A DNA stretch of 64,000 nucleotides, from positions 83,698 through 147,697 of the IMG/VR virus record IMGVR_UViG_3300037010_003037. One strand, written 5' to 3'. Each line of letters begins with the position of its first letter. Positions within the stretch are counted from its first letter, which is position 1. The notes beneath the pieces are model-generated. The model did not search any database, was not told the DNA's origin, and was given only the letters and a program-made list of their open reading frames with translations. Both the position numbers and the translations under genes were made by a program. Positions 1 to 53,045 of this stretch are shown here, piece by piece. The stretch is from a virus.

Positions 1-1
1 T

Positions 2-148
2 AATAACGGTGATGTTGCGAATTATGAGCTAGTAAAAATACGCGCAATTGAAGAATTAGAAGCTTTTGATAATGAATACGTGTATGACGTAATCATGGCT
101 GATGATAGCACGCCATGGTTTTTTGCAAATGGCGTGCTCGTTCATAAT
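2..148 (+). mobile_element. Intein C-terminal splicing region (blocks F/G) in DNA polymerase
   Basis: EYVYDVIMADDSTPWFFANGVLVHN followed by S: canonical His-Asn end with Ser+1. The extein SCYY fits insertion in motif C (YGDTD/S). Confidence 0.9.
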
Positions 149-976
149 TCTTGTTATTACAAATGCATTGGGGCTACTGACAAAGCGTCAGCTATTGAAA
201 TTGCTGACTTAACAGCTGAAGGGGTGAACGATTCATTCCCCGCTTTCATGCGAGAAGCATTTAATTGTCAACCAGAATTTGACACACTTATTAAAGCAGG
301 TCGTGAAATTGTTGGATCACGAGGGTTATTTCAAGCTAAGAAAAAGTACATTATCAAGGTTATTGACGCTGAAGGTTTACCCGTTGACAAGCTAAAGTCG
401 ATGGGATCTGAAATAAAGAAGGCCGACACTCCTAAGATCATTCAGGATTTTCTGAAGACAACAGTTGACATGATCCTGGATGGTAAATCATATGATGAAC
501 TAGCAGAGTATGTGAATGGTCAGAGACGTGAAATTCTGAAAAAGAAGGTAAACGTATTTTCTTTGGGTGTTGCAAAGCAAGTAAATAATCTTGAAAAGTA
601 CATGGCTGAGTATCGCGCACCTGGTACTTTTAGATCAAAAAATGGTGGCAAGCTAACTATTCCAGGACATGCTCGTGCTGCTTGCAACTACAATGCTTTA
701 CTTGAAGAATTTGACAAAGGTGCAAAACCTATCAAAAGCGGTGACAAAGTTCTAGTTTATTACCTAAAAAAGAACGATAGAGATTTTAAGTCGATTGCTT
801 TTCCTGCAGAATTTACGCGCTTTCCAGATTGGTTTACCGAAAACTTTCAAGTTGACATTAAGAAAACCGAGGAACGCATGTTTGACAGCAAGCTTAGCGG
901 TATGTTTGCCGCAGCGTTTAATAAAGAAGTTCCAACACCACAATCTGTCTTAACTAATAGTTTGTTGGAATTTTAA
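2..976 (+). CDS. gp43: Family B DNA polymerase, C-terminal part (5'-truncated by the window), including the end of an intein
   Basis: Frame is open from position 2. PolB C-terminal motifs KKKY, KSMGSEIKKADTP, IPGHARAACNYN and IKSGDKV; ends in NSLLEF (clamp-binding-like). Confidence 0.93.
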   Translation, partial: NNGDVANYELVKIRAIEELEAFDNEYVYDVIMADDSTPWFFANGVLVHNSCYYKCIGATDKASAIEIADLTAEGVNDSFPAFMREAFNCQPEFDTLIKAGREIVGSRGLFQAKKKYIIKVIDAEGLPVDKLKSMGSEIKKADTPKIIQDFLKTTVDMILDGKSYDELAEYVNGQRREILKKKVNVFSLGVAKQVNNLEKYMAEYRAPGTFRSKNGGKLTIPGHARAACNYNALLEEFDKGAKPIKSGDKVLVYYLKKNDRDFKSIAFPAEFTRFPDWFTENFQVDIKKTEERMFDSKLSGMFAAAFNKEVPTPQSVLTNSLLEF

Positions 977-49641: not shown

Positions 49642-50697
49642 ATGCAAGTACGCAATAAAGGTTCTTCACTGAAGAAGGTTGCGATGTTCACTGATATTCA
49701 TTTTGGTAAGAAGAATAATTCTATTCAGCACAATCAAGACTGTTTAGATTTTGTTACATGGTTTTGTTCAAAGGTTAAAGAAGAGCGTGATGTAAGTCAT
49801 GTTGTGTTCTTAGGTGACTGGTTTGAAAACAGAAATTCAGTGAACGTCATGACTATGAATTTTGCCTATGAAGCGCTGAAGCTTCTGAATGGTTTAAATG
49901 TTCCAATTTACATTATTATCGGCAACCATGATCTTTATCATCGCGAAAACAGAAAAGTCTTCTCAACAAAGGTCTTTGAACAGTTTGAGAATGTTACACT
50001 TGTAAATGAACCGACTGTAATTGATAACACTGTTCTAGTGTGTCCGTTTTTGTTCAAAAATGAATATTCAGAACTGGCCAAGTATTCCAAGCTCCCATAT
50101 TGGATGGGTCACTTTGAATTTCGTAACTTTGTTGTGACTGGATCTGATAGACGCATGGAACATGGCCCAGATCACAAACAGTTCAGTGAGCCTACATACA
50201 TTTTCTCTGGACATTTTCACAAACGTCAAGCAATTGACAATGTCGTTTATATTGGTAATGTTTTTCCCATGGACTATGGTGATGCTTGGGATGATGCACG
50301 TGGTATGTGCATTCTTAACACAGAAGATGATGATGTTACGTTTATTGATTGGGAAGACTGCCCAAAATATCGTAAAGTAAAATTGTCAGATGTAATTAGT
50401 GATAACGCTCCAATTTTTCCGTCAAAATGTAGAGTACGTTGTTTAATTGATATTGATATTGGATATTCTGATGCTCAAATCTTAAAAGAAGAAATGGTGA
50501 AACAGCTTGAATTAAGAGAATTTTCTCTTGAAGAAAACTTAAATGAGCGCAAGGATGCTATTGCTGGTGAAGATGTTCTGGAGAACTTTGATCTAAGCTC
50601 ACTTAATGATGCTGTGATCAAAATGCTTCAAACTGGCATATCAGGTACAGCCACAATTGATCCAGAACGTTTAGTAGACATTTACCAGCAATTATAA
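49642..50697 (+). CDS. gp47: Mre11/SbcD-like recombination nuclease
   Basis: Phosphoesterase motifs TDIHFG, LGDWF, IGNHD, GHFE and SGHFH. Confidence 0.93.
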   Translation: MQVRNKGSSLKKVAMFTDIHFGKKNNSIQHNQDCLDFVTWFCSKVKEERDVSHVVFLGDWFENRNSVNVMTMNFAYEALKLLNGLNVPIYIIIGNHDLYHRENRKVFSTKVFEQFENVTLVNEPTVIDNTVLVCPFLFKNEYSELAKYSKLPYWMGHFEFRNFVVTGSDRRMEHGPDHKQFSEPTYIFSGHFHKRQAIDNVVYIGNVFPMDYGDAWDDARGMCILNTEDDDVTFIDWEDCPKYRKVKLSDVISDNAPIFPSKCRVRCLIDIDIGYSDAQILKEEMVKQLELREFSLEENLNERKDAIAGEDVLENFDLSSLNDAVIKMLQTGISGTATIDPERLVDIYQQL

Positions 50698-50774: not shown

Positions 50775-51038
50775 ATGAGTAAACCAGTTAATTTTAAACA
50801 ATTACAGATTCGAAATTTTTTGTCTTTCGGAAACAATCTTACATCAATTGACCTCACGCATTGTGGCTCAACACTAGTTATGGGAGAGAATGTAGACGCT
50901 AACAGTAACAACGGTGCTGGAAAATGTGTACAAGGTAAAACTCTTATAAAAATTCGAAATAAACGAACAGGAGAAATCCAGACCGTTTCAATTGGAGATT
51001 TTTTTGAGAGCTTACAAAAGCCTAAAGAAAAAAGTTGA
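50775..51038 (+). CDS. gp46: Rad50/SbcC ATPase N-extein (50 aa) fused to split-intein N fragment (37 aa)
   Basis: RNFLSFGN...GEN...NGAGK followed by CVQGKTLIKIR...SIGDFF (intein block A); stop TGA. Confidence 0.92.
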   Translation: MSKPVNFKQLQIRNFLSFGNNLTSIDLTHCGSTLVMGENVDANSNNGAGKCVQGKTLIKIRNKRTGEIQTVSIGDFFESLQKPKEKS

Positions 51039-51437
51039 TATATCTAAAACATTCATCTCAATAATAAAATGCACCAGCTTTCAGATATTGTAAATCGTAA
51101 GTTCACTGACATCATTGACATAGATGATTATGAGATTGAGACGGACACAGGGTGGGTACCAGTTACACATCTTTGCAAAACAATCCCATATGATGTTTGG
51201 CAAATTGAGACAATAAATGGGTCAAAATTAGAATGTGCTGATGATCATATTTTGTTCACAGCAGATCTAAAGCAAGTTTTTGCTAAAGATCTACATGTAG
51301 GCGATTTGGTTTATACTAGAAATGGACCTCTTCCCATCAGCAAGATTCAAAAAACTGAACGTGTTGAGCAAATGTTTGACGTGCAAGTTGATCACCATAA
51401 TCATAGATTCTGGTCAGGTGATTATCTTTCGCATAAT
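50925..51437 (+). mobile_element. Atypically split mini-intein: IntN 50925-51035, IntC 51069-51437
   Basis: Cys1; block B ECADDH; block F MFDVQV..NHRF; block G SHN then Thr+1; no endonuclease domain. Confidence 0.92.
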
Positions 51438-53045
51438 ACTACGATCATTAACGCGCTGTGTTACGCTCTATACAACAAACCTTTTGACAATATTTCACTT
51501 CAACGACTGATTAACTCTACCAACAACACTAAGAATACCTTGATGGAAGTTAGATTAGTGTTTAGCAAAGGTGATGATGAGTTTGAGGTATATCGTTGTC
51601 GTGGTGAAACATTCAATATTCAAGTCTATATGAATGGAGAGGACATCACCCTTGACAGTGTTGCTGAAAATGACAAGCTTGTAGAAGAGCTAATTGGTAT
51701 AAGCTATGAGCTCTTTACGAAGATTATTATCTTTTCCGGAAATTCCATTCCGTTTCTGATGATGCCAGTTTCACAGCAACGTCAGCAGATTGAAGAATTG
51801 TTCAACATTACTCTTCTCACAGAGAAGGCTGTTAAGCTTAAAGAAATCATAAAGGCAACTGAGAACAGTATTTCAATTCAAGAAGCTGTTATTCGTGAAC
51901 AAGAAGCTGCGGTGAATCTGTATAATAAACAACTAAAGGACGCAGAAAACCGAGTTGCTAAATGGGAGTCTGATAGAAACGCACAAGTCATAAGTCTTCG
52001 TGAACAACTTCAACTCATGCAAACGGTTGACATTGAAGTTGAGAAAGAGCTTCATGTTTTAACTGCCGCGCTAAAGGAAGAAGAAAACACCTTGCAACAC
52101 AAGCTAAGTAGTGCTAAGAAGGATAAAGTGACAATTTCTGCAGAGATTAAGAAGTTATCAGACGAACTTGTACACTTATTAGAAGATAAATGCCCTTACT
52201 GCTTACAACAATATGCTGGCGCGGCTGAGAAGTTAATTGAAAAACAAGATCTTCTCGAGCAAAAAAAGACTAAACTTGTAAGTCTTGAGGAAATCATCAC
52301 GACTACATCAGCTGAAGTTGCAGAACTAGTTGATCAGCGCCTGCGAGCTGCCAAGCTTATGAAGTTTTCAAGCCTTGCTGATGCTGTACGAGCAGAATCT
52401 TCTGCACAAACAGCTCAACAACGAATTGATGAATTATTGAACACTGTTAACCCGCACAGTGAAGCGCTTCAAGCTTTGCGTGAGAGCGCTGTTAAAGAAG
52501 TTGACTACGCTCAGTTAGATTTACTTAAGAAGGATTTGGATCATCAGCAGTTTCTGTTGAAATTGCTTACAGATAAAAACTCATTCATCCGGCGTCGAAT
52601 TATCCAAAAAACAATTCCATTTCTAAACAATCGTCTAATCCATTATACTAAAGAGCTTGGACTTCCACATGTTGTCATGTTTGATGATGATATGAGCTGT
52701 ACCGTATCTGAGTATGGTCGAGAACTTGATTTTGGTAACTTGTCTAGTGGTGAAAAGAAACGAGTAAATCTTTCATTATCACTTGCTTTTAGAGATGTTC
52801 TTCATCATCTGCACTCAAAGGTAAATTGTTTGTTTATTGACGAGATAGATGCATCACTCGATAGTTCTGGAGTTGAAAATGTCTTTAGATTATTAAAAAA
52901 TAAATCTCGTGATGAAGGGCTTGGACTCTGGATAATCTCACATAGACCAGAAGCTATTGGTCGATTCGACCGTTCAGTAATTGTTCGCAAAGAGAATGGG
53001 TTTAGTCGTATCGTATCTGAAGATGGAGATGAGTTTGAAGAATAA
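51069..53045 (+). CDS. gp46: Split-intein C fragment (123 aa) fused to Rad50/SbcC C-extein (535 aa)
   Basis: After SHN: TTIINALCYALY, coiled coils, Zn hook CPYC, signature LSSGEKKR, Walker B LFIDEID, H-loop ISHR. Confidence 0.93.
   Translation: MHQLSDIVNRKFTDIIDIDDYEIETDTGWVPVTHLCKTIPYDVWQIETINGSKLECADDHILFTADLKQVFAKDLHVGDLVYTRNGPLPISKIQKTERVEQMFDVQVDHHNHRFWSGDYLSHNTTIINALCYALYNKPFDNISLQRLINSTNNTKNTLMEVRLVFSKGDDEFEVYRCRGETFNIQVYMNGEDITLDSVAENDKLVEELIGISYELFTKIIIFSGNSIPFLMMPVSQQRQQIEELFNITLLTEKAVKLKEIIKATENSISIQEAVIREQEAAVNLYNKQLKDAENRVAKWESDRNAQVISLREQLQLMQTVDIEVEKELHVLTAALKEEENTLQHKLSSAKKDKVTISAEIKKLSDELVHLLEDKCPYCLQQYAGAAEKLIEKQDLLEQKKTKLVSLEEIITTTSAEVAELVDQRLRAAKLMKFSSLADAVRAESSAQTAQQRIDELLNTVNPHSEALQALRESAVKEVDYAQLDLLKKDLDHQQFLLKLLTDKNSFIRRRIIQKTIPFLNNRLIHYTKELGLPHVVMFDDDMSCTVSEYGRELDFGNLSSGEKKRVNLSLSLAFRDVLHHLHSKVNCLFIDEIDASLDSSGVENVFRLLKNKSRDEGLGLWIISHRPEAIGRFDRSVIVRKENGFSRIVSEDGDEFEE

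Follow-up and report, generated by a model that had tools for sequence, protein, structure and literature searches.

A phage gp46 (Rad50/SbcC-like) gene split inside its ATP-binding loop, very probably by an atypically split trans-splicing intein

How is gp46, a Rad50/SbcC-like recombination ATPase, made whole in a phage whose gp46 gene is cut in two inside the ATP-binding loop? The question is raised by positions 50775-53045 of a 64,000-nucleotide (nt) stretch of viral DNA (IMGVR_UViG_3300037010_003037, positions 83,698-147,697), hereafter the window, where two consecutive open reading frames (ORFs), ORF1 and ORF2, each join a piece of gp46 to a piece of an intein. We consider it very probable that gp46 is made here as two polypeptides with a class-1 intein lying between the lysine and the threonine of Walker A (GAGK/TT, the slash marking the insertion point here and below), and that trans-splicing restores an ATPase of 585 amino acids (aa). 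Since the insertion falls inside the ATP-binding loop, whole gp46 most likely needs joining after translation. The reasons for this reading are the empty alleles of related phages, the catalytic residues, the recurrence of the split, purifying selection and the homology with inteins of the large terminase (TerL), and a predicted complex of the N- and C-terminal intein fragments (IntN and IntC) lends support. The elements of the locus are the following:

50775..50924, plus strand: gp46 N-extein, 50 aa, ending in NNGAGK (first half of Walker A); corresponds to positions 293-333 of phrog_77 and aligns with the N-termini of 17 intein-free relatives.
50925..51038, plus strand: IntN, 37 aa (CVQGK...KEKS), followed by TGA; block A with Cys1, a beta-hairpin and a probable first helix.
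51039..51068, plus strand: spacer of 30 nt in the frame common to both ORFs; contains a second stop, TAA, at 51045-51047.
51069..51437, plus strand: IntC, 123 aa; block B (ECADDH), block F and block G (SHN).
51438..53045, plus strand: gp46 C-extein, 535 aa and stop, from Thr+1 (TTIINAL, second half of Walker A); coiled coil, CxxC zinc hook, signature motif and Walker B.
50992..51093, plus strand: mini-ORF of 33 codons in another frame; what is left of a deleted Vsr-like homing endonuclease gene, its N- and C-terminal ends joined.
49642..50697, plus strand: gp47, SbcD/Mre11-like nuclease gene (Pfam Metallophos, E=5e-11; phrog_100, SbcD-like, E=9e-64).

When both ORFs were read again, the arrangement proposed in the initial annotation was recovered. 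ORF1 (50775-51038, 87 aa) begins with MSKP, ends its 50 gp46 residues with NNGAGK and continues with the 37-aa IntN, CVQGKTLIKIRNKRTGEIQTVSIGDFFESLQKPKEKS. After the 30-nt spacer, ORF2 (51069-53045, 658 aa) starts with MHQLSD, reaches GDYLSHN at residue 123, where IntC ends, and goes on with TTIINAL. The two ORFs share one frame, 294 nt apart, and are separated by two in-frame stops, TGA at 51036 and TAA at 51045. These two codons also close all 37 long ORFs (at least 150 aa) of the window, 27 by TAA and 10 by TGA, and therefore neither is plausibly recoded in the spacer; the argument that two different stops defeat a single base error or simple readthrough was thus sustained. An alternative genetic code was ruled out, as TAA and TGA both terminate ordinary window genes. 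TAG closed 0 of the 37 long ORFs and is apparently avoided.

The identity of the exteins was given by profile comparison. Of phrog_77, an SbcC-like profile of PHROG, ORF1 residues 2-50 covered positions 293-333 and ORF2 residues 124-651 covered positions 334-955 (E=2.5e-81), the break at 333/334 falling exactly at ORF1 residue 50 and ORF2 residue 124. The C-extein also matched SMC_N and SbcC_Walker_B, and ORF1 alone gave a sub-threshold AAA_23 match in Pfam. All the features of a gp46/Rad50/SbcC ATPase are present: Walker A, a coiled coil with CxxC, the signature motif, Walker B and an adjacent Mre11/SbcD gene, the zinc-hook cysteines C375 and C378 of ORF2 being invariant in the alignment. In addition, intein-free gp46 genes of 585-590 aa were found in 17 viral contigs (65-71% identity), all with an uninterrupted NNGAGK/TTIINA, and at DNA level the empty site is of the AATGGTGCTGGAAAA/ACTACG type. 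The expected spliced product (50 + 535 = 585 aa), with Walker A restored, agrees in length with these 17 relatives, as had been anticipated. No match to isolated phages was obtained by megablast of the locus; by gp46 protein the closest isolates, none of which has an intein at this position, were Ralstonia phage RsoM2USA (39%) and PA5oct-like Pseudomonas phages (36%).

The sequence lying between the exteins has what a class-1 intein needs, namely the block A Cys, the block B His, block F, His-Asn, a +1 Thr and a precise in-frame insertion. It is also laid out as a naturally split intein, in two ORFs that each unite an extein part with an intein part and have conserved stop and start positions. 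Cys1 (Cys51 of ORF1, directly after GAGK) was invariant in 13 homologous N-fragments. Likewise, residues A57, D58 and H60 of block B, D104 and H112 of block F, and S121, H122 and N123 of block G were invariant in an alignment of 42 IntC sequences including members at 27-35% overall identity. Thr+1 (T124) was kept in at least 90% of these 42 sequences, and the +1 residue was T, then T or S, in 55 of 55 distinct sequences of gp46 type. The alanine at the block-B Thr position, previously regarded as special, lost this standing: it is invariant in the gp46 family and is shared by VidaL and by the Vibrio phage Kuja TerL intein.

The split itself recurs. Thirteen other metagenomic proteins (84-90 aa, 62-78% identity) were recovered with ORF1 as query, all with the same N-extein and with IntN ending at the same place. 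The query with ORF2 residues 1-140 returned 107 proteins; 53 of 55 distinct gp46-type IntC domains start at, or a few residues from, the protein N-terminus, and one gp46-type IntC protein belongs to an NCBI metagenome-assembled genome record, annotated as 'Smc'. Both halves could be read in seven further loci, with boundaries as in the window and with IntC fragments that start M(H/Y)QLS(D/N)..(N/D)RKF and end FLSHN/T(T/S). This recurrence across many independent assemblies indicates that the split is no artefact. The homologous alleles thus numerous in public metagenomes are nowhere annotated as inteins.

At about 40% identity, IntC resembles the TerL inteins of Vibrio phages and Ackermannviridae. 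Its best matches among PDB sequences were VidaL (6vgv, E=5e-5) and gp41-1 (6qaz, E=2e-4), and the same search with IntN alone gave no meaningful match. The window intein occupies the same GK/TT position as the TerL P-loop inteins, as illustrated by the contiguous intein of Vibrio phage Kuja, which reads ARQSGK/CVDHDT...ECADDH...GILSHN/TTVVA. The Kuja and Ackermannviridae (Cba120-like) mini-inteins share the GK/C...SHN/TT context and the blocks with the window intein; they differ in being contiguous, the place of its split being taken by a linker of about 30 aa. By this homology the window intein is assigned to the TerL P-loop intein family, which holds known atypical split inteins.

The two intein fragments were also modelled together. 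ORF2 residues 1-175 and ORF1, each with its own alignment, were submitted to complex prediction along with three controls. The predicted complex scored 0.73 and the best of the 3 controls 0.00; 58 out of 80 solved complexes came up to the 0.73 mark, against 2 out of 110 mismatched pairs, counts that are rough since own alignments were used. The runs shared at least 67% of contacts, with a partner pLDDT (predicted local distance difference test) of at least 56. Contacts were predicted between IntN residues 8-13 and IntC residues 18-24, between Cys1 with its neighbours and block B, and between the extein parts, and IntN contacts at intein residues 23-24, 26-27 and 30-31 showed a helix-like periodicity. 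We take the predicted complex as support only, as it may reflect likeness to solved split-intein complexes and not independent evidence.

Block B lies in IntC (residues 55-60, ECADDH) and the 37-aa IntN is without it; the split is therefore of the 'atypical' kind. IntC residue 18 aligns to gp41-1 residue 25, and the split point maps within the linker of the contiguous Kuja intein. Together with the periodicity of the predicted contacts, both observations make it probable that the intein is split after its first alpha-helix, the S2 site of AceL-TerL and GOS-TerL. The likeness in arrangement to the short-IntN, long-IntC inteins of phage terminases, pointed out in the initial annotation, was upheld by the TerL homology and by the place of block B.

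Several points weigh against the trans-splicing of gp46. Protein splicing itself is a process that we infer here from sequence. Thr+1 is a weaker nucleophile than Cys or Ser, and splicing could be slow. ORF2 alone scored 25.5 bits with Pfam Intein_splicing, the cut-off being 35.8; the profile passes at 37.2 bits with the in-frame pieces summed, and to this extent the profile check went in favour of an intein. No clear Shine-Dalgarno sequence was recognised for ORF2; a 4-mer of this kind is present in just 16 of the 37 long window ORFs, more than half having none. An AlphaFold2 model of a contiguous relative, P0035 (mixed alignment), had a mean pLDDT of 58 and stayed below 50 over residues 1-94; being poor over the IntN part, where the helix was not visible, it was left out of the assignment of the split site. 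Finally, the ratios of nonsynonymous to synonymous substitution (dN/dS; pairwise Nei-Gojobori, eight loci) came to 0.13-0.19 in IntN, to about 0.10 in IntC and to about 0.13-0.14 in the exteins; they are approximate as dS is saturated, yet far below 1. These values indicate that both intein halves are under purifying selection.

The following course of events would make gp46 whole. ORF1 and ORF2 would be co-transcribed, because no terminator-like site was found in the spacer that separates them. The basic IntN would dock on the acidic head and the beta-sheet of IntC and complete the HINT fold; the opposite charges foreseen for the two fragments agreed with direct counts, of 8 K/R against 4 D/E in IntN and of 8 D/E in IntC residues 1-26. 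Afterwards Cys1, the block-B His, the Asp and His of block F, the terminal His-Asn and Thr+1 would perform trans-splicing, by which the 160-aa intein would be released and the 585-aa gp46 formed with an intact P-loop.

Where such a split came from was suggested by the related loci. Between the halves of L029, L032, L034, L037 and L041 lies an ORF of 363-375 aa, in a different frame and overlapping both the tail of IntN and the head of IntC. Its C-terminal domain carries the motifs IEYNGDYWHA...D...GYxVLVIWE; it gave weak matches to MTES_1575 (E=6e-6), DUF559 (E=1e-3) and Vsr structures (E=0.04), and it also matches homing/HNH endonuclease families of PHROG. By these matches it is probably a Vsr-like homing endonuclease gene, in the layout known as a 'fractured gene'. 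This layout was described by Dassa et al. (2009) as split-intein halves with a free-standing GIY-YIG or Vsr-like homing endonuclease between them (PMC2677866), and the five loci share it exactly, including the context of phage DNA metabolism. The window, unlike them, kept just the fused ends of the endonuclease gene: nothing more than the 30-nt spacer and the 33-codon remnant stands between its halves. The start of this mini-ORF, AYKSLKKKVD, matches the endonuclease start KVYKSLEEKVDH, its end, KCTSFQIL before the stop, matches KCINFLTQ before the stop, and its stop lies at +24 from the ORF2 start, an offset identical in L029. The earlier statement that no homing endonuclease lies between the halves thus holds for the window, and it misses the fused remnant there and the gene kept in five relatives.

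Other loci have lost the endonuclease in different ways. Its last 66 codons remain in L030 and L031; about 12 N-terminal and 25 C-terminal codons, mutually out of frame, remain in L035, whose intein halves are in different frames; and about 21 C-terminal codons remain in L036. The differing deletion breakpoints point to at least four independent endonuclease losses, and the absence of the endonuclease from the window is by this comparison a secondary loss. L036 (3765-3803) has a 33-nt in-frame spacer with one stop (TGA) and an IntC start GTG, and is one substitution short of a contiguous intein. In L040 (2501-4750) the gene is a single one of 749 aa, as a deletion joined IntN, with the frame kept, to the 12 nt that precede the start codon of IntC (junction ...ELYNNHRK-MHQLSD...). 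L041 (1190-4489) has IntN, a 365-aa Vsr-like endonuclease and an IntC near-identical to that of L040. From this pair we read L040 as a natural re-fusion of the split gp46 intein into a contiguous form. P0095 is a second contiguous gp46 intein, with a natural linker. Alleles at the Rad50 P-loop site were consequently found in empty, split and contiguous forms.

By these comparisons, an intein of the TerL GK/TT family was split when a free-standing Vsr-like endonuclease gene entered its loop, probably behind the first helix, and a fractured gene resulted. In the window lineage nearly all of the endonuclease gene was later deleted, which left the stop-containing 30-nt spacer. The split intein would persist because gp46 must be made whole.

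IntC is not confined to gp46. It also precedes TerL C-exteins, mostly in split form, and it heads the proteins P0093, P0100-P0103 (411-414 aa), P0094 (362 aa) and P0099 (655 aa), the C-exteins of which are AAA+/Clp-like (PF07724, PF00004, PF10431), a DnaB-like helicase (PF03796) and another SMC-like protein. The AAA+/Clp-like hosts have the +1 sequence T[LM][LI]A[KR], and all these proteins may represent further split P-loop hosts. Insertion into P-loops across ATPases is a known pattern of inteins (PMC4760082). In a tree of IntC (94 rows, 123 columns) the sequences clustered by host and well-supported branches forced at least 2 switches between gp46 and TerL, the tree as a whole being too short and too weakly resolved to yield a donor or a direction. 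Two TerL-type proteins, P0110 (722 aa) and P0113 (513 aa), have about 380 unrelated residues ahead of IntC, and may be endonuclease-IntC fusions or gene-calling run-ons.

In a cultured phage of the Straboviridae, Vibrio phage vB_VmeM-32 (KU160494.1), the large terminase was seen to be encoded by two genes, which lie on opposite strands of the record with about 79 kb between them. The N-part (L001:2455-3132), annotated as 'hypothetical protein', carries SRQLGK and a 34-aa IntN; the fragment ends SRQLGK/CVTGDTKITVRNKRTGEIKEMSIKDFHETTKKPA followed by a stop, its IntN starts CVTGDTKITVRNKRTGEIKEMSIKDF, and over NNGAGK plus the IntN region it is 57% identical to the window. The C-part (L042/L043:1102-3216) has IntC first and a second, contiguous intein in addition. 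This terminase looks like an atypically split TerL intein that is unannotated in the record, and since the phage is cultured, a viable phage would rely on such an intein.

Taken together, the loci led us to a reversible cycle, which we hold to be somewhat more probable than its contrary. A contiguous TerL-type P-loop mini-intein would be split at the S2 loop by a Vsr-like endonuclease, which then decays (at least 4 independent deletions), and the halves would either stay split, as in the window, or re-fuse, as in L040 compared with L041, where the old IntC Met is kept. The family would have moved between the GK/T(T/S) P-loops of at least 4 ATPase families (gp46, TerL, AAA+/Clp-like and DnaB).

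The history of the endonuclease bears directly on whether the split intein serves the phage. That it has been domesticated as a conditional switch gating gp46, and hence recombination-dependent replication, is the alternative that survives best, though we judge it improbable. The unspliced fragments lack the P-loop, activity would depend on splicing, and inteins do cluster in ATPase P-loops (PMC4760082). However, nothing specific to regulation came to light, an intein-free gene serves most close relatives, the same intein family occurs in the P-loops of TerL, AAA+ and DnaB proteins, and invasion by an endonuclease followed by its decay is what a selfish element predicts. Together with the many intein-free relatives, this history is in keeping with a selfish element that nothing short of a precise deletion can now remove, and such a relic fits the data as well as or better than gating. 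The gating of replication suggested in the initial annotation accordingly found no support and is speculation.

The predicted interface between IntN and IntC would serve equally if the intein halves were no more than non-covalent dimerisation handles by which the gp46 pieces assemble without splicing. There is a precedent in PMC3045599, where a fragmented phage ribonucleotide reductase is described to assemble via domains derived from mobile elements. However, an unspliced 160-aa domain inside the P-loop (GK/TT) would disrupt ATP binding, and a mere handle needs none of the splicing residues, all of which are invariant or nearly so over a deep divergence; this explanation is very unlikely. A similarly slight chance is given to a decaying allele, that is, to a gp46 pseudogene broken by the invasion of the intein and endonuclease, with another SbcCD, or that of the host, used instead. 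The homing endonuclease is clearly degenerate in the window lineage, and the contig, at only about 42% of the genome, leaves room for a second copy. Against this, both ORFs are intact, dN/dS is about 0.1-0.2 in intein halves and exteins, the split form recurs with conserved start and stop positions in many diverged lineages, and no second gp46 or second IntC was found on the contig (~42% of the genome). The slightest chance is that of a sequencing or assembly artefact, or of readthrough or recoding, hiding a contiguous cis-splicing mini-intein, for even if ORF1 and ORF2 lie in one frame, the related L040 is contiguous and re-fused and the L036 spacer has a single in-frame TGA, the window has two different in-frame stops that both end ordinary genes, the L035 halves are in different frames, and the halves of five loci lie about 1 kb apart with the fragments unchanged. 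The trans-splicing of gp46 from two polypeptides remains, in consequence, the reading that we prefer.

As for the surroundings of the locus, the window is the final 64 kb of a 147.7-kb contig of IMG/VR with an estimated completeness of ~42%, and the virus is therefore taken to be a jumbo phage with a genome of roughly 350 kb. In the window gp47 is directly upstream of gp46, a synteny shared by all related loci, and a PDDEXK_15/RusA-like resolvase gene is downstream of the gp46 halves. A TerL gene was sought on this contig, again ~42% of the genome, and was not found. Free-standing endonuclease genes of GIY-YIG/SegE-like type were observed near the gp47-gp46 module in L035 (6331-7083), L036 (1597-2385) and L040 (5289-5714), and the neighbourhood looks like a hotspot for homing endonucleases. 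Another intein of this phage lies in its family-B DNA polymerase gene, which extends into the start of the window (window 1-976; G000:C1, about 81878-84673; L004:1-2796). This mini-intein is contiguous (Pfam Intein_splicing, 46.8 bits, residues 501-656 of the partial frame) and too distant from the gp46 intein for detection with the IntC query.

The nearest in design among known systems are the GOS-TerL and AceL-TerL inteins (Thiel 2014; Bachmann & Mootz 2015), which according to PMC11766414 and PMC13014065 have an IntN of 25-37 aa, an IntC of 104-115 aa and an S2 split. Compared by described sizes, the GOS-TerL fragments have 37 + 115 aa (PMC11766414) and those of the window 37 + 123 aa. As in AceL-TerL and GOS-TerL, the host is a phage P-loop ATPase, and the homology of the window intein was shown to other TerL P-loop inteins; unlike in them, this host is gp46/Rad50-like and the pair is Cys1/Thr+1 in place of Cys1/Cys+1 or Ser1/Cys+1. 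VidaL (6vgv) also has Ala at the block-B Thr position (CAFNH), but its split is S1, its IntN has 16 aa and its host is another. gp41-1 (6qaz) is a canonical split of 88 + 37 aa, in another host too. The eight fractured-gene hosts in PMC2677866 are gp41, IMPDH, DnaE, NrdA, NrdJ, ligase, terminase and one unknown, gp46/Rad50/SbcC not being among them. No intein allele in Rad50/SbcC/gp46 was described in the literature searched, which excluded subscription-only papers and InBase. The searchable literature thus describes neither the gp46/Rad50-like host nor the Cys1/Thr+1 pair nor the spaced layout without an endonuclease, the mechanism itself being known. The host protein, presented earlier as new, is so with regard to that literature, but dozens of unannotated alleles are already in sequence databases.

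In practice, an essential recombination gene is mistaken for two genes when this locus is annotated automatically. Only four naturally atypically split inteins (PolB16, VidaL, AceL-TerL and GOS-TerL) are cited in recent literature (PMC13014065), and to these the locus would add a gp46/Rad50-like host and a Cys1/Thr+1 pair. Atypical splits are valued because a short IntN can be obtained by peptide synthesis for protein semisynthesis, and the relatives, spread across a number of ATPase hosts, make up a pool of more than 90 distinct natural variants in which fast or orthogonal splicing could be looked for. The series of loci runs from the empty site through the fractured gene with its endonuclease, the remnants and the endonuclease-free split to the re-fused intein, and bears on the origin of split inteins and on the reversibility of splitting. 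If the reversible cycle proposed above is true, the 'rare' atypically split inteins would be common in uncultured phages.

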